Below, in pieces: positions 8,290 through 44,559 of a stretch of 64,000 nt of DNA. The translations under genes and the position numbers were made by a program. Numbering within the stretch: the stretch's first letter is position 1; every line of letters starts with the position of its first letter. Under the pieces are notes generated by a model. That model was given only the letters and a program-made list of their open reading frames with translations. It was not told the DNA's origin and did not search any database. This DNA is from Squalus acanthias (lineage: Eukaryota): positions 78,928,001 through 78,992,000 of the forward strand of contig CM059432.1 of the NCBI GenBank assembly GCA_030390025.1, given 5' to 3'.

Positions 8290-8710
8290 CAGGCATCATA
8301 TATGTGCCCATCTTTACCTCGGAGGGGCTTGCATTTACCAATCTAAACAGTCCTTTCTAAGCAAGTCAAAGGAGATTTCACAAGGGAGATGTCACAGAGC
8401 TATCCCATCTCCTACAGCCTAACCTGCAGACAATTTCTAACACATGGATAGCTCTTTTCAAGGGTGTGAAGGTGACCACTGCATTATACTTCATCCTTCC
8501 AAGCCACAATCAGTGACATTTGTCCAAATCAGTTATCCTGCTGTCTACAGACCCATCAAGCCAGTGACTGAGGTCTTATTTGCAAAGGGTAACATATTCA
8601 TCACTCTGCCCATGAAACGGAGGCATCAGCTCAACAGGTCACAGAACTTTTCCTGAATGGCAGGCTTTCCAAGAGTGCAGAGCATCAGAGATGGACCCAT
8701 GTGACCATCT
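8290..8710 (+). pseudogene. Highly degraded PIF/Harbinger transposase fragment
   Basis: Frameshifted pieces DVTELSHLLQPNLQ, VKVTTAL, SFQATISDIC, ISYPAVYRPIKPVTEVLFAKGNIFITLPM and MAGFPRVQSIRDG match, in order, the transposase at 40534-41706 (VTELCHLLQPELQ, VKVTVAL, SFKASTGNIA, ISQFAVHCCIREVTYALY...YISFPM, IAGFPMVQGAIDC). Confidence 0.75.
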
Positions 8711-17281: not shown

Positions 17282-18362
17282 GGCCTAGAAATTCGAGTAG
17301 GCTGGAAACCTGCCGGTAATAGCGCCAGCTAAGGCTAACGGACGCTGCAGAAAGAGCTCTGACGCACCGGTATTTTGGTGCTGCCTGCTAATTTACATCA
17401 GCAGAGCGGAGAATCTGTGGTACAACGCTCTCTTTCCGGCGCTAAGCACAGCAGGAGGCTGAAGGTCGTGTCTGTTACCACTTAGATTTAAGGAGAAAAA
17501 GGAACAAACGAGTCAACCTGTAGGCCATGTACGGAACAGTTGCCGTATTTATTACGGCAATTTACCTGCCATCCACTCACCAATCCGTCAATGTTACAGT
17601 ATTGCACTCAGCTCTTGTGGAGAAAGCTCTTGTTGTTTAAAGCGCATCAAAGTGACACAAGCAAAGCTCTGGAACCTACCTATGGAAGTGTGTTATCTTT
17701 TAAATCAGCTCAGGCTCTGGCTCGCAAAATTTCGACAGAGCAAAAAATGGTTCAGCAACTAGAGAGTCTATCGACTGCGCCAGGAAAGTCTGTGGTTTGA
17801 TTGATCTTCATCGAATGTGATGAATTATTCAGTGGCGATGATAATTTATAATGACCTGTCGCCATTGGCTGTTCACTTCATATAATGATGACCGTTTTGG
17901 TTTCAGTCACAAACTGTTATGGATAAGTCTACTCTCGTCTCCCCACCTGCAATCATCTGTGTACCATTATACACAGAGGTGCTTCTACTAGTCTTCATCC
18001 TCAGAACTAGATCCTTTCCATCAAATTAAACACCCACACCCACGTGTACCTGAGAGCAGGTATAGCATGTGTATGATGCTCAAGCGCTGTCAGCGGCTGT
18101 ACGCACAGGCGTGCTTTGGAGAGGGCAGTAAGAGGAGTGGCGAGCTCCAAAATGGATGAGCGTGTGTCAATTCGGCGTTGTACACTGATTGACGTCACGC
18201 TCCTGCTAATTTTAAAACTTTCCACAAGCACAGGCAATGGCAGCGCTACTAACCTGCTGAAAATGGTGGCCCACCAGAAGTGGGCAGAAGTGAGACAGCC
18301 GCCATTTTTTTTACTGAAACTGGCCTTAACGGCCAGCGCAAAACACCTCCAACTTCTAGGCC
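17282..18362. mobile_element. Non-autonomous Harbinger-type element, 1081 bp
   Basis: TIR GGCCTAGAAATT / AACTTCTAGGCC (11/12 match); 3-bp TSD TAT on both sides; CpG-rich subterminal regions. Confidence 0.75.
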
Positions 18363-19237
18363 TATAAGTTTATATATCGTATAGTAGTACATGTGTTACT
18401 AGTACAAAGCAAATCTCAAGCTCCTCATTATATCTGCAAGAGTTAGAGTCAAACTGAAGCTGTAACCAAAGTGACCTAAATGGAAGCATTTTGGGTTAAC
18501 TTGCATCCCCTGAACTTTGCTCATTAATATTATCTTAGGTTTGAGTTGGTCTATCCCACAAATTATCCTGTCGCAGCATGTGTACTCGCATTGTCATAGC
18601 AGGTAAGCAGCTGGATGCACCAACAAAGATACCTGTTTCACTTCTTCCTTCATACTTTTACAGTTTTAGCCCTTAATGCGTCACAGACAAGTTCATTTGT
18701 CTGTTTGCAATCAAGCTCAGGGGCAGAGGAGGTCCAAATATATTAAAAATTGCAATTAGAATGTTGTGCCCATTCTTGTGTGCACTACTTTAGAAATGAT
18801 GTCAAGGCCAAGGAGAGGGGACAGAAGATATTCACTAAAATTTTCCAGAGAAAAGAAGCTTTAGTTATGACATAGCAGAGAAAAGGGGGCTCTTTTCATG
18901 AGAACAAGAGGTTAAGACAAGGGGGGCTAAATATGATAGCCCCCTGAAAATGGGTGCAGCGATTAACTCGCACCCATTGCTTCTGATGCAGGCAGCATGT
19001 AAACTTCATGCTGCCTGCTAATTGAAATGATTGCAGCATTGAGGAAGTGCTAAACACGCTGATGAGTGGCTGAGTGCCTCAGCAGCGGGCCCAAGTTCGT
19101 GCGAAGATAGCACCGCTTAAAGCTAGCCTGCTCTACTTAAAGACAGCCTTCACCTCTTAAATGGGAGGTGAATTCTGGCTGAAGCAAGTGCTGGAAGTGG
19201 CTGTGGAATAGAGTCTGACCTGCAAGAAGAGTGACTA

Positions 19238-22200
19238 TTGGCGCAAAAGGAGAGAGAGCATGCTCCAAGGTTTTCAGATGCTGCATTGGAGGCCTTGATG
19301 GAGGAGGTGGACAGGAAGAGAGAGGTCCTCTATCCTCAGGGGACCAGGAGGCCCTCCAGACAAACTCTCAGAAGGCAGTTAGAGCTGGTAGACATGGCGG
19401 TTAATGCCAAAAGTCAAGCCCCAAGGACCTGGATGCAGGGCCGCAAAATGTTCAATGACCTCACACAAGTGGTCAAGGTCAGTGAATTCATCTTCAAATG
19501 CCATATCCCACCAACTGCACCACTAGCCTTACACACTGCTCAATGCACCATACCCCCATCACTCACCTACCAACAATCTCTATCAAACAAGACTCATACC
19601 TCACATTCATATCTCCACCTCACCCTCACACACTTACCACTGCTGCAAGCCTCACACCCATATCTCACAGCTTGCACACATGGTCAGCTATTCAACCATG
19701 ACAGGCACATCATCCAAACACATTGCACCACACTCACTGACACATTTCCCTCTCTCTTGCAGGACAAGTTGGCACATAACCGACAGCAGCACAATCTAAC
19801 TAGTGGGGGACAGGCATGGCCGCATGACCTAACCCCAATGGAGGACACTGTGATCACCATCATTGGAGCAGCCATCGCTGAGCCCGTGGCCAGTGGCGGG
19901 GCTGAACAATCAAAGATGACATACGTAATCATCCTTCTCATATCCCACTTCCCCCTTAACCCACAATCTCTTCTGATTTACAAGCTGCAGAGCGTGTAAG
20001 CATGCACCTCTTGCTTTACCCACCTCCCCTCACCACAGCCCTACCCTGTGCCTTTCTTCTTTCAAATACCCAAAAACTGCAACCTGGCCAGGCAGCGGTG
20101 GAGGAGCAAGAACTGGAAGAAGAGGAAGAAGGCAGTGATGCTGAAGACACAGCACTGTCACTCAATTTCACACTCACAGCCACCAGCTCAGATACTGACA
20201 GTTCGAGTACTTTAGGGGATAGCTTAGACACGGGATCTGCACATGGTAAGACACCGGGCACGAGTGGCCTGCAGCCAGGGCAGGGGGCATGGGTAGCGCA
20301 GGTGCCAGCTCCCCGGAGGGCGAAGTTGCACATGAGTTCTGCTGCACAGGACTCAGATGAGCACTTCGATGGGGCAAGCTACAGAAGAAGGCTGATGGAT
20401 ATTTTTTTTTTAAATTTGTTCATGGGATGTGGCGTCGCTAGCAAGCCCAGCATTTATTGCCCATCCCTAGTTGCCCTTGAGAAGGTGGTGGTGAGCCGCC
20501 TTCTTGAATCGCTGCAGTCCGTGTGGTGAAGGTATTCCCACAGTGCTGTTAGGGAGGGAGTTCCAGGATTTTGACCCAGCGACGATGAAGGAATGGCGAT
20601 ATACTTCCAAGTCAGGATGGTGTGTGACTTGGAGGGGAACTTGGAGGTGATGGTGTTCCCATGCGCCTGCTGCCCTTGTCCTTCTAGGTGGTAGAGGTCG
20701 CAGGTTTGGGAGGTGCTGCCAAAGAAGCCTTGGCGAGTTGCTGCAGTGCATCTTGTAGATGGTACACACTGCAGCCACGGAACGCCGGTGGTGGAGTGAG
20801 TGAATGTTTAAGGTGGTGGATGAGGTGCCAATCAAAAGGCTGATTTGTCTTGGATGGTGTCGAGCTTCTTGATTGTTGGAGCTGCATTCATCCAGGCAAG
20901 TGGAGAGTATTCCATCACACTACTTACTTGTGCCTTGAGGATGGTGGAAAGGCTTTGGGGAGTCAGGAGGTGAGACACTCGCCGCAGAATACCCAGCCTC
21001 TGGCCTGCTCTTGTTGACACAGTATTTATGTGGCTGGTCCAGTTAAGTTTCTGGTCAATGGTGACCCCCCAGGATGTTGATGGTGGGGGATTCGGCGATG
21101 GTAATGCCATTGAATGTCAAGGGGCGGTGGTTAGACTCTCGCTTGTTGGAGATAGTCATTGCCTGGCACTTGTGTGGCGCGAATGTTACCTGCCACTTAT
21201 CAGCCCAAGCCTGAACATCGTCCAGGTCTTGCTGTATGCGGGCATGGACTGCTTCATTATCTGAGGAGTTGCGAATGGCACTGGATACTGAGTAGTCATC
21301 AGCGATCATTCCCACTTCTGACCTTATGTTGGAGGGTAGATCATTGATGAAGCAGCTGAAGATGGTTGGGCCTAGGACACTGCCCTGAGGAACTCCTGCA
21401 GTGATGTCCTGGGGCTGTGATGATTGACCTGCAACTACCACAACCATCTTCCTTTGTTCTAGGTATGACTCCAGCCAGTGGAGAGTATTTCCCCCGATTC
21501 CCATTGACTTCAGTTTCACTCGGGCTCCTTAATGCCACACTCGGTCAAATGCTGCCTTGATGTCAAGGGCAGGCACTCTCACCTCACCTCTGGAATTCAG
21601 CTCCTTTGTCCATGTTTGGACCAAGGCTGTAATGAGGTCTGGAGCTGAGTGGTCCTGGCAGAACCCAGACTGGTGAGTAAGTGCTGCTTGATAGCACTGT
21701 CGACAACACCTTCCATCACTTTGCTGATGATTGAGAGTAGACTGATGGGGTGGTAATTGGCCGGATTGGATTTGTCCTGCTTTTTGTGGACAGGACATAC
21801 CTGGGCAGTTTTCCACATTGTCGGATAGATGCCAGTGTTGTAGCTGTACTGGAACAGCTTGGCTAGAGGCGCGGCTAGTTCTGGAGCACAAGTCTTCAGC
21901 ACGATAGCCGGGATGTTGTCATGGTCCATAGCCTTTGCTGTATCCAGTGCGCTCAGCCGTTTCTTGATATCACGTGGAGTGAATCGAATTGGCTGAAGAC
22001 TGGCTTCTGTGATGGTGGGGACTGCAGGAGGAGGTCAATATGGATCATCCACTCGGCACTTCTGGCTGAAGATGGTTGCAAACGTTTTAGCTTTGTCTTT
22101 TGCACTCACATGCTGGGCTCCACCATCATTGAGGATGGGGATATTCATGGAGCCTGTTTAATGGTTCCACCACCATTCACGACTGGATGTGGCAGGACTG

Positions 22201-22900
22201 CAGAGTTTTGATCTGATCCGTTGATTGTGGGATTGCTTAGCCCTGTCTATAACATACTGCTTCCACTTTTTAGCATGCATGTAGTCCTGTGTTGCAGCTT
22301 TCCCAGGTTGGCATCGCATTTTTAGGTACGCCTGGTGCTGCTCCTGGCATGCTCTTCTACACTCCTTATTGAACCAGGGTTGGTCCCCTGGCTTGATGGT
22401 AATGGTAGAGTAATGGATATTGTGGTGGTATGCACAATGAAATGCTTGGTGTATTGGCAGACCTGCCAGAAAGCCTGCGTGCAATGTCAAGGAGTATGGA
22501 GAAGTTTGGCACCAACTTGGCACAGTTTTTTGCGCAGAGCTTGGAGCCCATCTTTTCCAGCATGGAAGTGGTGACCAACTTCATTAGTGCACTTGTTGAC
22601 CCAACCATGATGCAGTGTCTGATGGCCGATGTCTCAGCTTCCATTGCAACACAAGCAGAAGCCACCCAATGTCTGAGTGCTGCAGTGGAAGCTAAGACTT
22701 CCGTCATGAAAGCTCAGCTTGCTGCCACACAAGCTCAGACCGCTGCCATCATGGCTGCGGTTACCAGTGTTAAAAGGGGCTTGCAGGGTGTCACAGCAGT
22801 CCAGCAATCTGTCCTCCAACAGATTACTAGGATTGCTGAATCGCCGCCCTGGGGGAGTGGCAGTGGCTCCATGGAGCACGAGCCTGCTGTTCTCTCAGGA
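19238..22900 (+). pseudogene. Harbinger Myb/SANT-like DNA-binding protein pseudogene (exons 19238-19477, 19763-~19920, 20066-20400 + ~22425-22900)
   Basis: RFSDAALEALMEEVDRKREVLYP...RTWMQGRKMFNDLTQVVK|gtcagt; ttgcag|DKLAHNRQQ...; start codon is TTG, the second donor and acceptor are mutated (atacgt, ttcaa), and exon 3 is split by a LINE inside RRRLM/GMHNEMLG. Confidence 0.8.
20403..22420 (-). mobile_element. CR1-clade (Zenon-like) LINE, ~2 kb, 5'-truncated
   Basis: RT motifs [27 protein letters not shown]; tail matches the copies at 915 and 60860-60943. Confidence 0.9.
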
Positions 22901-23409
22901 TGGCAGCAAACTGGGAGATGTTGCAAATATTTTTGTTCAGATGTATTTAGGTTTCAGCGCTATCTAAAAGATTCAATGCATATGTGCTGGAAGCTCTTTA
23001 TGTGCAACACAGTGCTATTCAAAAGATTGAAACAAAATGAACAGCTGCTAGCCCTAATAGACTTGTTCTTTACTAACACAATAAATGTTGCTAGAGAAAC
23101 TGGATAACTTCATTAAATAATTACTTGAGAAGTTCCACTACTCAATGTCAATTTTTCTTCTTCCCTACATTTTACCATACCTGGACATCAAGATATTATA
23201 GTCAACTGAAATTATTGGGTTGCAAACAAACAGCTCAAATAGTAGACACACCAGCCTGCAACAGTTTTTAATTTACCACACTTTGGAGGAGTGACTCAGC
23301 GCATTTCTGTACCTGCCCACATCTTACATGATAATACATTAGAAGACAAGCTGATATGCTGGAAAAAGTGAATTAAAAGGAGTTTAAAAAAAAGATTATA
23401 ATGCCAAGA

Positions 23410-35164: not shown

Positions 35165-37022
35165 GGTAAAAAAGAAAGATCTTGCTTTTATATAGTGCCT
35201 TTCATGACCTCTGTATGTCCTAAACCCTTTATTGCCAATGAATTACTTTTGAAGCAAAGTCACTGTTTCATGTAGTGAAACGTAGCAGTCAATTTGCACA
35301 CAGCAAGGTACCACAAACAGCAATAAGATAAATGACCAGATTATCTGTTTTAGTGGTAATAGTTGAGGGATGACTATTGGCCAGGGTGTAATGGAATAAG
35401 CCATATTCCAAGAAATACATCATCCTATGAACAGATTTTGATAACATTAATACATGACATACTGGGTTTAAAAGTCTGGAAAGCCTTGGCGACACAGGCT
35501 GCAAACACAATACAGGCTTCTGAGATAAGATGGTTTGTTAACACAAAGCTGTGAAAACAAGCTTTAAAATGGGAATTGGTTTGTAAATACAGAGACAAAG
35601 CCCCTATCGAAGCAAACTATTGGTGCTTCCAGAATGTCTAGAGTTTGGAACAAAACAATAGCAATGCCCAAGTAAAGTGTCAAAATCTAACATGTCGAAC
35701 AGGTGCACAGAACATTAAAAAAACCAAGTGCCTTTGAAAAAATGACATCAAGTAAAAGAAATACCTGCCGTAAAATAGTTTTATGTTAAACTTAGAAACA
35801 GGAAACACGATTAAATATGCAACCAATTGAAATAGCTAAGAAATGCAAAAAACACCCTGGTTGAAGTGTTTTTGATTTACAAGTTGTAAAAGGTACAAAT
35901 AGGAAGGCTTTGAAAATATAATGGCCCAGAAATTCGGGTCGGAGGCTTCCCGCAGGCGCAAGCCCCCGACCTGCACTTACATAGCGCGCCTGCCGTTGTG
36001 CTGTGGGCCCGCGTGGGATTCCGATCCTGGGCCTCCTCCAGCTGCCGGTGTGCAGTGCTCGCGTAACCCAGCGGCGAAGCTAGTTCGCAGCGTCCCCTGG
36101 GATCACGTGGGCCATGGGGAGCCAATCGGAGCAGGGAATCTCCATTCATAGATTTGACAAAAATAGAGCTTTTCAGATAGAGAGTCAGAAGTCGCTGGAA
36201 GGGCAAGCGTTTCTCAACTTCACAGGCACGCTCTGTAAGTTTTCAACTCTGAGTCTCGGGTAATCAAGGTATTTAATTTTGGTGGATATTCTGGATTAAG
36301 AAATAAGTAGAAGTGTGGAAATGTAACGAAGTTAAGATTTGAGAATAAGGATCTCTGATAAGAAATGTAAGCTATTTGTATTTTGAACGGTTAAAGTCGC
36401 GATTGACTTATCAGCTGTTAACTGAATGTCGGCTCTTAAATAAATCTATATATTTTTAGAATTGTCTCAAGTAGTATTTCTGTATCAACCTTACGAACTC
36501 AATTTCTGTACACTCTTCAGAGAGGAGTTGCAGAATTCTGGGGGGTTTTCCGGACCCTCATAATATCCGGAAGGTTACAGTCTAGTGAAACTTATTAAAA
36601 GTGCTATCCGGAGGACGGTAACATCTTCAGGCCGTTTCTTTCCTTTAGGGAGAGTAGTCTGACCTTTAGACCCAATTAAGCGTCTCTAGGATTCAGCTAC
36701 CGCTAACTTTAGTTGAAGGTGAACGTCTGGGGAATACGCCTGATCTGGGGTAGTCCGAAAGGGCTAGGACTTGTAATTATCCCTTCAAGGACACCAGGAG
36801 AACTCCATTTGAATAGTGTCATGGGATCTTTTACATCCACCTGAGAGGGCAGATGGTTTAACGCCTCATCTAAAAGACGGCACCTCTGACAGTGTAGCAT
36901 TCCCTCAGTCCTGCACTGAAATGTCAGACAAGAGTATGTGCTAAAGTCTCTGGAGTGGGGTTTGAAACCACAACCTTCTGACTCAGAGGCAGGAATTCTA
37001 CCACTGAGCTTAGGCTGACACC
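35165..37022 (-). mobile_element. DeuSINE (SacSINE1/AmnSINE1-like) split by an LTR-like insert (halves 35165-35386 and 36788-37022)
   Basis: Minus-strand tRNA head (AGCTCAGTGG...GGTTTCAAACC), Deu-like core GGTGCCGTCTTTTAGATGAGGCGTTAAACC...GTAAAAGATCCCATG, L2-like tail AAGGCACTATATAAAAGCAAG. Confidence 0.8.
35387..36787 (+). mobile_element. Putative long solo LTR (1401 bp, including a nested MITE fragment at ~35923-36150)
   Basis: Starts TGTAA, ends TTCA; near-TSD AGGG/AGGA; precisely splits a SINE; TATATAA at ~35916 and AATAAA at 36439-36444. Confidence 0.6.
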
Positions 37023-38324
37023 ACTAAAAGTCATCATCTAATTTAATTTTTTTGCAAGGTACCTCTTTATCTTTCTCACCTCTTCCTCTCTGCTTATTTC
37101 CTCATGACATGCATTAACTCTCAGTAAGATGATATTCAACTACTTATGTCATATAATCCTTATCTAATCAGTTTCCATCAATTATCTTTTATTTTCACTC
37201 AGTTATTCAAAAAAAAACCTGCGTTTAAATTGCTACCTTTCTATTTTGTATTCCTAATAGCTCCAGAGTTGAAAAGCTCCATTGGCAGAAGTCTGGGAAC
37301 AGGTTGCCTGTTCACTTTCTATGTTGCAGGAATGATACCAAACACAGATAAGTAAAAGAAAAATGAGGAAATAAGCAGAAAGATAATAATACATTATACT
37401 TGCAATCAATATCATCCATCTAGGCTTTTCTTAGAGGTGAATCAACACAGAATTTTATGTTTTTTGTAACACTAACCATGCTTCAACAAGATGAAGTGTC
37501 CCATCAATTTGTACAAAAAACTGTTGCTTAAATAACTGTGGTTTTCTGAATTAAAGCTAAAAGGAAGCTATGTCCAATTCACAGCATGGCGCTGGGCACA
37601 AGGACAAACTGCAGCTGAATCTGCCCATTAATGTAACAGACTGGCTGAACAATAGGTCACAAATGCATTACTTTATGGTACGCTTGCTGCCTTTAACACT
37701 TGTAAATGACCTATTGTGATCTTCTTATTCAAAAAAGCCACAATTCAAGTACTGAAGCTGGACCCAACTACCATGGTAACATTTGACCTCTTTCTTTGAT
37801 GCATTAATTTATGAATTTGTGGCATTTAAACATGTGATCAAGATAAAGCTGCTGACATAGAACGTTCCATAATTTTGTGAGATCCTCTTCAATGTCTTGT
37901 TTCACCAGTGAATCCAATTACCCAAACAGGGTTTGTTGTTCATCTATATAACATTTTAACTAACTTACAGGGAAAAATTCAGTATCGACCATTTTGGGGC
38001 GCTAATATCAGTCGGGCGCAAAATTTAGCGCCCAGCGCAAATTATCGCCGGCGACCGGGAAATTCGTCTCCAGCGCCCCTGGAGGTGATTGGAGCGTTAA
38101 ATCAAGCGCTACACACTTCTCTTAGGGCGCTATCGTCGGGGAACAGGACGCTACCTCAGAGCGCTACTCAAACTCAGGTGCTGTCAATTACCTAGTACTC
38201 AGACAGACTGGCGCCTTCCAGTTCTTAAAAGGGAAGGGTCCATCATGCTGCACAGCCTCACCCTGATCATTGCTGTGTTTGACCTGGGCCTGCAAGGAGG
38301 TGCAAATCTTCAACAATGATTATC

Positions 38325-40207
38325 ATGGCTGATCATAGGCCCAGGGAGATAGCTCGCCGGTTCAGCGACCAGGTATTGGAGGCCTGGTTGGCACTCTGGA
38401 ACGCCAACGGGCAGTGCTGTTTCCAGACACTGGCAGGAGGCCATTGCCCCGGGAGTTCACAAGGGTGTGGAGGGAGGTTGCCCATTACGTATCGTCCAGA
38501 AGTGTGGTCAAAAGGACTCATACGCAGTGCCGCAAGAAGTTCAATGACCTCACTCGGGTTGTCAGGGTGAGTAGATGCTTGAAATACCTCTAAATCCCAC
38601 CATCTCAACCTCACTCTGTGCACAGACGGTATAAAGTGCCAAATCCCCAACACTCACCCAACAACTATGCCCATCTACTAAAAGTCACATCCACATCTCA
38701 CACCTTACAGACATTAATAGCTATTCAACTATGGTAGGCACATCTGCCAAACACATGGCTGCACACTCACTCACACGCTGTCCTTTTTCTTGCAGGCCAA
38801 GCTTGCTCATAACCGGAGGGAGCAGCAATGCATGGGAGGACAGGCGGAGCTGCACCCCCTCACACAGCTGGAGGAGCGAGTTCACAGACTAATCGTGAGC
38901 CATGTCGTGGGCACTGTGGCAGTTGGAGAGGTCGACCCCCTTGGGGACAGCAACGGTATGTTCATCATCTCTCTCTCCTCTCTCATACCACTTCCCCCTC
39001 ACAACACCAGCCTTTCCCACTTTCCATCTAACTATACTGTCTCCATTCCTTGCTCCCTTCCTGACCCCCTGACCTCATGTTAAAGCCACTCTTGTACCTT
39101 CCTGCTTTCAGATAGTGAGCCACCATCTGACCAGCCTGTTCCTCAGCCTCCCAGTGGCAGCAACATGGGAGAGGAGGAGGAACACGAAGCCGGCGCCTCA
39201 CCGCCTGCGTCTCCCGAGATTGAGACATCCGATACTGGGGCCACACGGTCACTGGAGGGGAGCAGAGGAAATGGCTCTGATGCGGGTGAAGCTCCGGGAC
39301 CCAGTGGGCTGCAGCAACGCCATGGGGGAAGGGAAGCTCGGGGGCCATCTCCCCGGAGGGTGAGTGTGCGCACGAGTTCTGCTGTACAGGACTCGGATGA
39401 GGACCTCAATACCTCGGCGATGAATACTCAGGCGATAAGCATGCATACTGAGCTCCTGGGTGCAATGGCAAGGGTGCCCAAGAGCATGGATGCACTGGCT
39501 AGGAGTGTGGAGGAGTTCGCCGCCAGCACAGCATCTGTGCACAAACCCTCGAACCCATCCATGCTTCGTTGCAGAGGATGGTTGACTTGCAGAGAGACCG
39601 TGGGGACCCAGACCACATCCGCCGTGTAATGGGTGAGGTGGCAGCATCTATTGCAGCACAGGCCGAGGCAACGCAATGGCTTAGTGCTGGAATCGAGTCA
39701 TTGGTTGGTGCCATCCAATGTCAGAATGCTCTGATGCAGTCTCAGATTGATGCCACGCAAGCGCTGACTGCTGCCATCCTCGCTGGGTCGCCCACTGTCC
39801 CCCGGGGCTCTCACGGTGCCGCAGCAGGCCAGCAATCTGTGCTCGAGCAGATTGCTCTGGATGCTGAGGTTCTGCCCCGGGGGAGTGGCAGTGTGTCGGT
39901 CGAGCAGGAAGGTGCTGTCCTCTCTCAGGATGACAACATTCCTGCTGCCACCACTGCCACTCCGCCATTGCACTTGCCACAGCCTGTAACCCAGCCAGCC
40001 CAGACTGCTGCCACCCATGCAGAGTTGGTGCAGTCTGCAGCCGGGCCCTCCAGGCCCAGAGCTGGTCGAGGGTGTCCTGCAAGGCCATCTGCAGTCTCTG
40101 GCTCCCAGACTCAGCAGCCTTCCGCCAGCCTTGCTGCAGCCACTGGGGCCACATTACGGAGGAGCAGTAGGGTTGGAAGGGGGGAAGTGCGAAGGGGAGG
40201 GAGATAA
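38325..40207 (+). pseudogene. Harbinger Myb/SANT-like DNA-binding partner gene, 3 exons (38325-38566, 38796-38955, 39112-40207), two frameshifts
   Basis: MADHRPREIARRFSDQVLEA/LVGTLERQRAVLFP...VWREVA...RTHTQCRKKFNDLTRVVR|gtgagt; ttgcag|AKLAHNRREQ...|gtatgt; tttcag|DSEPP...; intron phases 0 and 1 are consistent; frameshifts near 38384 and ~39530. Confidence 0.87.
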
Positions 40208-40533
40208 TTGAAGAAGGCCGAATAATTAAATTTTTTCTAACATATGGGGGGAGTGTTTGTAACAAAGTTGGATGTGTATGTAAATATATTGTTCAGTCTG
40301 TTAAGACTTATTTCGATGTGGTAAGAACCAGTTTTGTTTGTTAATGAATTGTTGTGTTCGTTTGTTATTAGTTGTGCTTAATAAGACACAGTTGTTCAGA
40401 AGAATAACATTTTTTATTGAAACGTTACAAATTTCCTCATGTTACTCATTGGAACTTTGCCCGGTAAGAGGGGCTGCGGGATGGCTGTAATGATGTGCTT
40501 GTTGATCCCAAAAGCCATCTTCTCTCTCATTCA

Positions 40534-41706
40534 TCAGAAGCGCTGTCTTATGAGGCGTTCACAAACGGCCCTTGCAGAAGCAACATTGAGCGCCTCCCTC
40601 CCACGTTGTTGCTGCTCATCCTCCTCTTCATCCTCCTCCACCTCCTCCTCTCTCTCTTCCTCCACCTGAGGTGGTCCACCAATCCCTGGTCGCAATGGCT
40701 GGGTTCTCAGAATTGCGAGGTTGTGAAGCATGCAGCACACAACAATGAAAACCGATACTCGATCGGGGGAGTACTGCTGGGCTCCTCCAGAGTGGTCAAG
40801 ACACCGGAACCATTGCTTCAGCACACTGATCGTCTGCTCAATCAGGTTCCTGGTGGCGCTATGGCTGTCATTGTAGGCGAGCTCAGCAGGAGTGTTGGGG
40901 TTACAGAGCGGTGTCATCGGCCAGGTGGCAAGTGGATAACCCTTGTCTCTGAGGCCCCAGCCACCAGGTTGATGCAGTGGTTGGAACAGGTCTGGGACAC
41001 CAGTCTGGCACAGGATGAATGCATCGTGGCTGCTGCCAGGATAGCGGGCATTGACGGCGAAGATGTGATGTCTGTGGTCGCAAACCAACTGGACGTTCAG
41101 AGAGTGAAAGCCTTTGCGGTTGTGGAAAACCTCTGCATTGTGATGAGGTGCCCGCAATGCCACCTCGGTGCAGTCAATGGCACCCTGAACCATGGGGAAG
41201 CCCGCTATCCTAGCGAAGCCACATGCGCGTTCACGCTGTTTTACTCGGGTCATGGGGAATGAGATGTACTCTCTTCTCCTTCTGTACAGAGCATATGTGA
41301 CCTCTCGGATGCAACAATGGACAGCGAACTGGGAGATGTTGGCAATATTCCCTGTTGAAGCCTTGAAGGAGCCGCTGGCATAGAAATTGAGAGCCACTGT
41401 CACCTTCACTGCCACCAACAGAGACATCCTGGTCCTGAGCTGAGGCTGGAGCTCTGGCTGCAGGAGGTGGCAGAGCTCTGTGACCACCTCCTTGCTGAAG
41501 CGGAGCTTTCAAAAACACTGCTTCTCGGACAGATGAATGTATGAGAATTGCTCCCGGAATATCCTTGGAGGGTAAGGTCTCCTGTGCAGAGCCCTGTTGG
41601 CCCTCCTCCCTCTGGCCACGTTTTCCACTCTCTCTCTCTCTCTCAGCCTCCGCTGTCTCTGACGGTGAAGCTGGAGGACGAGGCCCCATGCTAGTACAGC
41701 CCCCAT
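40534..41706 (-). pseudogene. PIF/Harbinger DDE transposase (HARBI1-family nuclease), 390 codons with a single in-frame TGA at 41509-41511
   Basis: GAIDCT, NRKGFHSLNVQLVCD, YPGSSHDAFI, RDKGYP, YNDSHSATRNLIEQTI..LK..FRCL and CCMLHN motifs; ORFs 41509-41706 and 40534-41487 are in the same frame, joined by *KLRFSKE. Confidence 0.92.
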
Positions 41707-42530
41707 TAAATCTTCTAAATGTGGTAGTAATAAAGCTTACAGAAATGAGAACCTGAAAAGTCTTGCTGACGAACAAAACTCCTTCAAGGAGGACAGCATT
41801 AAATGTCTCCAGACACCTCTCTCCCTCTCTCAACCTACGTATGCAAAATTGATTGCTGACAGGAAAAAGCAGGAAGGGCACGCCTTTGAATAGCGCTCCC
41901 CCAGCTCCCAGCCGACTGCAAACCGTCCCCCTCTACCGTCGTTCCCAGCGGCAGGCGCTGAGGCAGGGGACGACAATCAATTTCCGGTCCAGGGCACTAC
42001 CGGGGTGATGCGAGCTTGGATGACGTCATCGTGGCGGTAGTGTTTAGTGCCACCGCAAACCGCCAGGTCAATTTCGCAGGTGGCGCTAAAATCACCGGGC
42101 TTGGGCGGTAAGTTGTTAGCGCCCCATTAGCGTCCCCCCGGAGGCACTAACCAACCGAATTTTTCCCCCTTAATCTTTCCTTGACATTTGTTTGGAAGTT
42201 AATGGCCTATTTTATTTCATGTGTCTTGGGGGTGGGGGGATTCTTAGATAGTCTGAACCTTTGACAATATGGAGTATTTGTATTTTTTAAATCATAAATA
42301 CAGAATTTTGAGAACTTTGTGTGGACAAAGTAAAAATAAATATTTTATAAAACTATATTGTATGCCATTAGAACTGGTCTAAAATATTGAAACTGCGTCA
42401 ACTTAATGGAATGTGTTATTCACTATTTTACAACGGGTCAATGATCTATTAAACTTCAATTCTTTAAGCTTAATTTATACTATTAATGGAAAATGATTAC
42501 AACCAGTTTGATATTTTAGTTCGATACATT

Positions 42531-43272
42531 GGCCCTGAATTTGCGGTCAGTATGATGGTGTACGCCTTTGAAACTGACCACAACGTTGGGATTTGACGCA
42601 TGCACAAGTGCATGCAGAAATCCCAAAGTTGCAGTCTGTCAATGACAGCTCCGAAACTGGCTGTGCTGTCCACCCCTCCCCCACACCCCATCCCACACCC
42701 ACAGAGCCGGAAATCAGTAAAATCTCGTAAATCATTGAAACTGACGAAAGCTTCGGCTCTTCCACAGTAAGTACGCTGTTAAACTCCTGACTGAAAGTTA
42801 GACCCAAAAGGATTAGGTGTAACTGGGGTTTTAACAGCGTTTTGACTGCTAAACAAATGTTAAGGGCCTGGAAAACTAATTTTAATTTTGTGCAGTGTGA
42901 AATTTGTTCATTTTAATAAAAAATAAAATTTTTAAGAAACTTTTTTAAGTTTGTGCATCTTTATTTTAGCTGTGCCTTTGCCCCATGTGAGAACCCCAAT
43001 CTTTCTTCTGCTCTAACTATTTTAAAAAGTTTGAATTACTCACTTCCTTGTTCGCTGTCTGTGAGACTTCTGCCGTTTGATTGGCTGCTTAGACAGCCTG
43101 TTGACATCACAGCAGTTCACACAAGGGAATCCCCATTAAGTTTTGTTGAATTGAATGCAAGGTCGGAAAACCCGAAGTTCTCGACACAGGGATTGCGAGA
43201 TCCCTGTACGGAGCGTACTTCAGGGCCAGCAGCTAACGCCTTCGCTTTGCTGCTGACTGCAAATTTAAGGTC
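42531..43272. mobile_element. Non-autonomous Harbinger-type element, 742 bp
   Basis: TIR GGCCCTGAATTTGCGGTCAG vs GACCTTAAATTTGCAGTCAG (16/20 match); 3-bp TSD ATT. Confidence 0.78.
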
Positions 43273-44559
43273 ATTGTGTTTTACAATGGTTCATGTCTTA
43301 TGAGGTTTATTACCTTGATGGGGGATTATTAATTTATGGGGGAAAGTGGTTTGTTACTTCTTTCAGTTATAGAATGCTTTAGTTACGTTTTAAAGAATTT
43401 GTAGATTTTTTCTCCATAATAAAGGTTTGCAAAATCAAATTTCATATCTGTGATGTGTATTTCATTAAAAACTTTCCCCTGAAGCTTGTCCCGGTGGGTA
43501 AACCCAAGCTAGTACCTGCTGCACCAGTAGGGGCACTGTAATAGGAGTTTTCAATGTCAAGCCTGTCACACCTTGCCTAACACAGATTCGCCCATGCAAG
43601 GTTAAAGAAAAGGTAAATGACAGTGGAGCAAAGGGGAAAGGAGAATAGAGGGGTTGCGTGGGTAGATCAAAAGGGGGATAGAGTTAGTGGCAGTAAGAAG
43701 CAGAATTGGTAGGGGGAAGGTGAAGTAGTATGGGATACGATGGGAAGCACATGTAATTGGGGGAGGGGATGGGAAGAGAGCCACTGAGGGCTACATTTTC
43801 CCCACAATTCCTACCCCAATTACAGCTTGCCACTGTTGGTGGCTCCTTTCTCTGCCATACCATGCTATAACACACCATCTGCCACCTGAAAAGAAAGTAG
43901 AAAAAGATAGAGAGGTTGTAAATCTGGGCAGCGGATTACATTCCAGCATAAGCGCTGCGATGTGCCAGTTCAGGATCTCTGGCACGGACCCTGTCGAAAT
44001 TAATGCAAGGTCCTCTAATTAACATCTCAATGTTAATGACTGGATCCCCAAGTGGTTCCCACATGCCCTGTTTGGCTGGCTGGTATGTCTGGTCTTGTCA
44101 CTGATGAACATCAGGAGGATTGGAGATGCAGAAATTCCCGATGTAGGGAATTCTGCCACTGCGCTCAGTGTCTCCTGCATCGATGATCTTGTTTGGGTCG
44201 TGCAAAGGTTCCACCCCCCAACAGGTCGCCCAGGAAACTCCAATCTAAGGTGAAGACCCTGCGTAATTTGCAGCCTTTTTAACGCAATTCCACCAGAATT
44301 ACAGCCGGAATGCACTGGAAGGGTTGTGGATTTTTCCCAGACAGAAAGAAGCAAAGAGAAGAGTTAAGGGGAGCGAAGCAGAAGAGAAAGAGAGCAACAG
44401 AAGCAGAAGTCGAGAGACAAAGAGAAACAGTAACAAAAAGACATCAGAGACAGGGAAGAGAGTGACCATATGGTTTAACTTACTGTGTGCAACAGCACAG
44501 GAGATTAACGAGTTTATTTTATGAAGCCACTGTACATTTTGATTGCATGGTGCTTACTG

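Follow-up and report, generated by a model that had tools for sequence, protein, structure and literature searches.

A full-length PIF/Harbinger transposon, probably old and now inert, in a 64,000-nucleotide window of Squalus acanthias DNA

Structure of the element and its two genes

The window analysed here is a stretch of 64,000 nucleotides of Squalus acanthias DNA (assembly GCA_030390025.1, contig CM059432.1, positions 78,928,001 to 78,992,000 of the forward strand), and its main subject is a full-length PIF/Harbinger element of 4202 bp at 37968-42169. The GC content of the element is 0.54, against 0.35 in its left flank. The features that place it in the PIF/Harbinger group are terminal inverted repeats (TIRs), a 3-bp TWA target-site duplication (TSD), here TTA, a Harbinger-type DDE transposase, a Myb/SANT gene, and multiple copies. 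Very likely it is an old copy, complete in length but inert today, of a PIF/Harbinger transposon that was once autonomous and belongs to a high-copy family in a shark/ray genome. A preliminary description had reported TIRs, a TTA duplication, a 390-codon transposase with one TGA and a convergent, spliced Myb/SANT gene, all of which are found in the sequence. The features are as follows.

37965..37967, no strand: left target-site duplication TTA; the likeness of the flanks to the Harbinger3_DR target favours the TTA register
37968..37983, plus strand: left TIR; outermost two bases CA, against GG at the right end
37984..38267, no strand: left sub-terminal region, CpG-rich; seven GGGCGCTA-like sites within 37968-38267
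38325..38566, plus strand: Myb exon 1 with the Myb-like domain (PF13873 and PF13837); ATG at 38325, frameshift near 38385
38567..38795, plus strand: Myb intron 1, GTGAGT..TTGCAG, 229 nt, phase 0
38796..38955, plus strand: Myb exon 2; aligns with a paralog in the window and with the database model P0017
38956..39111, plus strand: Myb intron 2, GTATGT..TTTCAG, 156 nt, phase 1; supported solely by its splice consensus and by continuity of the frame
39112..40207, plus strand: Myb exon 3; frameshift near 39540, TAA at 40205-40207; protein model of about 499 aa
40534..41706, minus strand: intronless DDE transposase pseudogene, 390 codons plus stop; PF13359
41870..42153, no strand: right sub-terminal region; six GGGCGCTA-like sites within 41870-42169
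42154..42169, minus strand: right TIR, pairing with the left TIR
42170..42172, no strand: right target-site duplication TTA, the same triplet as on the left

The left end, from 37968, is TTA|CAGGGAAAAATTCAGT, and GGGGGAAAAATTCGGT is the sequence inward of 42169 at the right end, with TTA outside it on the plus strand. Of the 16 bp of each TIR arm, 13 match the other arm and neither of the two outermost does; the repeat search gave a 93% match for the inner 14 nt of the pair. In 300-bp windows at the ends, a single inverted pair of at least 13/16 with identical 3-bp flanks was found, and none of 40 shuffles produced one; regardless of the flanks, such a pair arose in 11 of the 40. A search with the TIR pattern at up to two mismatches gave three matches in the window, a number equalled by 16 of 100 shuffles and not significant alone. 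The step in read-contig depth and the junction contigs described below coincide with the TIR-defined ends. In the TTA register, the outer flanks agree with the Harbinger3_DR target at 8 of 12 positions, which is within the top 0.7% of 15-mers in the window. A CAG duplication register carries as many mismatches as TTA, but its flanks agree at only 4 of 12 and it was rejected. In the corresponding register, each of two non-autonomous elements in the window has G as its first base, and three of their four ends read GG; because of this, a loss of two terminal G's from the left terminus of the present copy is most likely.

The transposase gene matches PF13359 with an E-value of 1.2e-32 in a domain profile search and is interrupted by a single internal TGA at codon 66 (41509-41511). 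An origin of this stop from CGA, as first proposed, is consistent with arginine being the commonest residue at codon 66 in the listed homolog motifs and stays plausible. The acidic residues D178 (GAIDCTE), D228 (SHD), D254 (LRDKGY) and E290 (IEQ) are retained and two of their neighbours are altered (H181E and G253R), in agreement with the preliminary description of the GAID, DKGY and IEQ motifs and of the altered DCTE and LRD. AlphaFold modelling of the region that follows the stop gave a pLDDT of 77.5. A Foldseek search gave no match at E ≤0.001; its weak top rows, which were not counted, are DDE transposases/integrases (Tn5, E 0.064). The single match of a sequence search against the PDB was judged to be due to chance.

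The Myb/SANT gene matches PF13873 with an E-value of 6.7e-6 and PF13837 with one of 4.1e-6, in each case above the curated cut-off, and converges on the transposase, with 326 bp between its end and the transposase stop. Its GT..AG introns and two frame breaks are those already described, the breaks being positioned by alignment to the window paralog. The position of intron 1 in the protein is identical in this paralog (19235-22905) and in P0017. Exons 1-2 are 46% identical to P0017 over 111 aa, and the protein is 40% identical to the paralog over 410 aa (E 3e-78); the homology extends to residue 406, and the last approximately 90 residues of the model are without support. Searches with the exon-1 part yielded none of 12 candidates, and with the C-terminal part none of 7999 (longer proteins; weak evidence).

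P0017 itself is a sawshark gene model that joins Myb exons 1-2 and a transposase in one frame; either a genuine fusion or an artefact of gene prediction could account for it. The paralog is a second, diverged Harbinger Myb gene at 19235-22905 on the plus strand, within 18920-22905. It is interrupted by a LINE-like insert of about 2 kb, at about 20400-22424, with ATGGATAT at both sides. Near 18921 there is a G-rich sequence that resembles an element end; a transposase and a right end were not found.

Copy number, age and decay of the insertion

Contigs of four of the 20 listed sequencing runs were aligned to positions 36700-43500 at a likeness of at least 80%. In run X1, the 18 bins that lie entirely within the element have summed contig depths of 6,597-450,447, against 10.4-10.5 in the unique left flank, and a depth step of several hundred-fold or more is present in all three of the non-RNA runs (X1, X8 and X11). 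This step spans the whole element and is therefore incompatible with a single-copy gene: the element is multi-copy, and it is not the single-copy domesticated gene that the preliminary description had named as the alternative. Of the traits of a domesticated gene, namely a single copy, intact reading frames and a lack of TIR and TSD, the element has none. That the locus is common to three organisms, and that the same clade includes domesticated-looking relatives, might still suggest a domesticated HARBI1/NAIF1-like gene pair at one syntenic locus. This explanation is extremely improbable, given that both genes are broken, the TIRs and TSD persist, the sequence is high-copy along its whole length, and the window protein falls outside the three cross-species groups of the tree described below, with 55-62% core identity to their named members. 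In run X17, guessed to be RNA, only diverged contigs lie over the element, and no intron-spanning joint is among the 15 of 1137 joints listed.

Four contigs cross from unique flank into an element end: two of organism A, one at each end, one of organism C at the left and one of organism D at the right. They extend inside the element by 31 and 28 letters (A), 29 (C) and 30 (D), and about 30 letters are expected when a 31-mer assembly enters a repeat. The flanks differ from the window by 0.2-1.0% in organism A (2/1018 and 4/416), 2.6% in C (27/1034) and 5.7% in D (22/385). Since the junctions are shared by organisms C and D, the insertion is probably older than the splits from both. Assuming equal neutral rates, with half of the flank difference on this lineage, the substitutions expected in the 4202 bp are 55 (36-79) since the split from C and 120 (76-179) since that from D, of which 15 or 34, respectively, would fall in the transposase gene. 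From these figures we infer the age of the insertion and its neutral decay. In run X1, A>G and T>C differences outnumber G>A and C>T differences by 198 places to 97, as expected if this copy lost CpGs. Of the 87,276 contigs aligned in this run, 66,831 are less than 95% alike, a count that includes two flanking repeats.

The decay is seen in the transposase as well. With a column counted as conserved where at least 70% of 111 homologs have the same residue, there are 139 such columns, and the transposase has a different residue at eight of them; these include H181, L251 and G253 beside two catalytic aspartates. At 11 or more transposase sites, another letter is present in 71-99.6% of the contig depth, and nine of the 11 listed alter the amino acid; three of the eight changed conserved columns are also contradicted by at least 98% of the depth.

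A different explanation holds that this is a young copy of a recently or still active family, just three frame lesions from working. It would account for the retention of all four acidic residues, which occurs in only 34 of the 92 homologs that span the four positions, for the presence of one stop only in 390 codons, for the sub-terminal CpG observed/expected ratio (o/e) near 1, and for the 5.7% of run X1 contigs that are at least 99% alike. Junctions common to organisms 2.6% and 5.7% away, the eight conserved-column changes, three of them opposing at least 98% of the depth, and the damaged left terminus argue against it, and we regard it as unlikely. The preliminary description had placed the element a few mutations from intact. 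With respect to open reading frames this stands, at three lesions; with respect to function it lacks support, considering the changed columns, the left terminus and the old insertion. Neither the damaged left terminus nor the further missense changes at conserved columns had been recognized in it.

The frame breaks could in principle be assembly errors in an otherwise intact element. Single-base indels are known in long reads, and among the contigs listed none of this exact copy spans the breaks. The indels do not stand alone, however, but occur alongside a stop codon and many missense changes, and the flank contigs of organism A, with differences at just 2/1018 and 4/416 letters, indicate that the nearby assembly is accurate; we give this explanation next to no credence.

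Several observations weigh against an old and inert copy of a high-copy transposon. Judged by changes at conserved columns, only one of the 112 aligned sequences is less decayed than the window transposase. In run X1, 4,939 of 87,276 contigs are at least 99% alike, and a younger related sequence may thus exist. The summed depth of contigs does not give a copy number. Sister subfamilies are also among the contigs aligned at 80% likeness, and part of the differing letters may therefore distinguish subfamilies and not be lesions. The TIR, a 13/16 match, is short, and its outermost bases do not pair. Just one of the four junction contigs satisfies a 31-letter bridging rule. No empty site is among the rows listed, which are 40 of 1118 for substitutions and 15 of 1137 for joints, so one may have been missed.

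Sub-terminal motif, target site and neighbouring elements

At no more than one mismatch, the left and right 300 bp of the element contain seven and six copies of GGGCGCTA, respectively, and the 3602-bp interior contains one. None of 200 shuffles reached the 13 sites per 600 bp of ends (unbiased count). These sites are candidate binding sites of the Myb protein. Harbinger transposition requires both proteins; in the Harbinger3_DR system, the Myb protein recognizes a 9-bp motif in the sub-terminal DNA and takes the transposase into the nucleus (PMC9710019, PMC9179366, PMC9392472).

In the window element, the most likely role of the spliced Myb/SANT protein was to bind the GGGCGCTA sites repeated near both ends and to recruit the DDE transposase, which would have cut at the G-rich termini. 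The element would then have been pasted into a 3-bp site in a loosely palindromic, Harbinger3_DR-like context with duplication of TTA, at a time when the lineages of the host and of organisms C and D had not yet separated. Neutral decay thereafter would comprise one stop, two frameshifts, the change at the left terminus and, in the transposase gene, probably 15-35 substitutions. The three elements of the window with defined ends have the duplications TTA, TAT and ATT, with flanks that agree with the Harbinger3_DR target at 8, 7 and 9 of 12 positions, respectively; these three sites suggest that the target may be chosen by its flanking sequence.

The CpG o/e is 1.17 at 37968-38200 and 0.94 at 41880-42169, against 0.42-0.46 in both genes. 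These sub-terminal values are high for a copy of this age.

The window is repeat-dense and contains many reverse-transcriptase frames, LINE-like by a reading of their translations. A high-copy non-autonomous element of 742 bp lies at 42531-43272, with inverted ends of about 20 bp, ATT at both sides and flanks that agree with the Harbinger3_DR target at 9 of 12 positions. Contigs of organisms A and C enter it; that of organism D no longer aligns beyond 42527, which hints weakly that the element is absent from organism D. An ANT, 'Pangu-type' reading of this neighbouring miniature inverted-repeat element was set aside on the agreement of its flanks. The second non-autonomous element, of 1081 bp at 17282-18362, has GGCCTAGAA ends (12/14 match) and a TAT duplication. 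At 8301-8492, on the plus strand, lies a decayed Harbinger transposase fragment with 42% identity over 64 aa to the main element.

Relatives in sharks and rays and comparison with known systems

Among the best 120 of 219 protein relatives listed, 115 are named from sharks or rays, some of them labelled 'putative nuclease HARBI1', which bears out the earlier assignment to a two-component PIF/Harbinger of cartilaginous fish. The closest listed relative, P0002 of Pristiophorus japonicus, is 68% identical over 90% of the length and has K where the catalytic E stands, whereas the window transposase retains E290. A quick tree with SH-aLRT support was built from 50 of 121 proteins and does not include true HARBI1, which was not recognized among the sequences collected; in it, the window transposase lies within a poorly ordered group of sawshark paralogs, outside the cross-species groups. 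A metagenome scan kept 80 of 340 confirmed loci at no more than 49% identity, none of them of the window family.

Three groups of relatives look like candidate undescribed domestications, because their catalytic residues are lost and yet their sequences are alike across genera. The first (P0025, P0027 and P0126-P0128; 378-381 aa) covers five species, one a sawfish and the others sharks, of Pristis, Scyliorhinus, Carcharodon, Chiloscyllium and Hemiscyllium at 89-98% core identity, with the SHD aspartate lost in all five. The second (P0006, P0010, P0012, P0013, P0016, P0019 and P0078) is a clade with an SH-aLRT of 100 whose members are 75-91% alike and come from six named species, in the genera Heptranchias, Carcharodon, Narcine, Chiloscyllium, Mobula and Scyliorhinus; rays and most sharks lie on separate branches, and two to four of the acidic residues are lost. 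The third (P0005, P0123 and P0124), from two Mobula species and Hypanus, has 99-100% core identity and K at the catalytic E, and is a candidate for a domestication in the stingray lineage.

A further set (P0056 and P0129-P0133) comes from Scyliorhinus torazame: six proteins with lengths of 481-484 aa whose cores are 98-100% identical and in which the four acidic residues are kept. They come from many accessions and at least two contigs, and are candidates for a young, naturally intact Harbinger family or for a tandem duplication.

Whale shark contains Harbingers (PMC8455134), and they are the commonest DNA transposons of the grey reef shark (PMC12498223). In elephant shark no Harbingers were found, and other cartilaginous fish were proposed for study (PMC9179366), a question on which the present element bears. 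Outside subscription papers and Repbase Reports, the literature searched holds no description of this family, and a term search of the available supplements of PMC4482050 (three files) and PMC12498223 (one file) found no shark family.

The element itself adds little, being a further example of a known element type and more decayed than first apparent; its relatives, that is, the three groups and the S. torazame set, matter more. As a specimen it is useful for annotation of the family through its ends, gene structure, target context and candidate Myb-binding motif. Intact, mobile two-gene copies of this family elsewhere in the genome are doubtful. If such copies exist, the family would belong to an undescribed shark-and-ray Harbinger radiation that targets by flanks and not by the central triplet, uses GGGCGCTA as a sub-terminal code, includes a naturally intact, young catshark family and gave at least three host genes. 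Such a radiation would offer a vertebrate Harbinger system in its natural, unreconstructed form, together with the host genes domesticated from it. Revival of the present family would repeat earlier work because a vertebrate Harbinger, Harbinger3_DR, has already been reconstructed (PMC3016246).

Within the PHIS superfamily (Han et al. 2015, PMC4482050), the element shares with PIF/Harbinger the TWA duplication, short TIRs, a DDE transposase and a Myb/SANT gene. Of the Nuwa groups of PHIS, NuwaI targets CWG and NuwaII C|TNA|G; the window site is C|TTA|A, which is not CWG and fits NuwaII on the left side only. Compared with the elements of fish, whose TIRs are 25-50 bp (PMC9179366), the window element has a TIR of 16 bp, and both of its genes are broken. 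HARBI1 and NAIF1 are of the same two gene types but are conserved host genes of jawed vertebrates (PMC9392472), in contrast to a broken repeat with TIRs and TSD, and among the matches listed none of the shark and ray proteins labelled 'putative nuclease HARBI1' is near enough to be this family. A further known system close to the element is Harbinger3_DR of zebrafish (Sinzelle et al. 2008, cited in PMC3016246, PMC9710019 and PMC9392472), which likewise consists of two proteins. Its sub-terminal Myb motif is 9 bp long, against 8-9 bp for the candidate motif here, and its central triplet is CWG, against TTA; the target flanks agree at 8 of 12 positions. Harbinger3_DR is reconstructed and active (PMC3016246), whereas the window element is broken.

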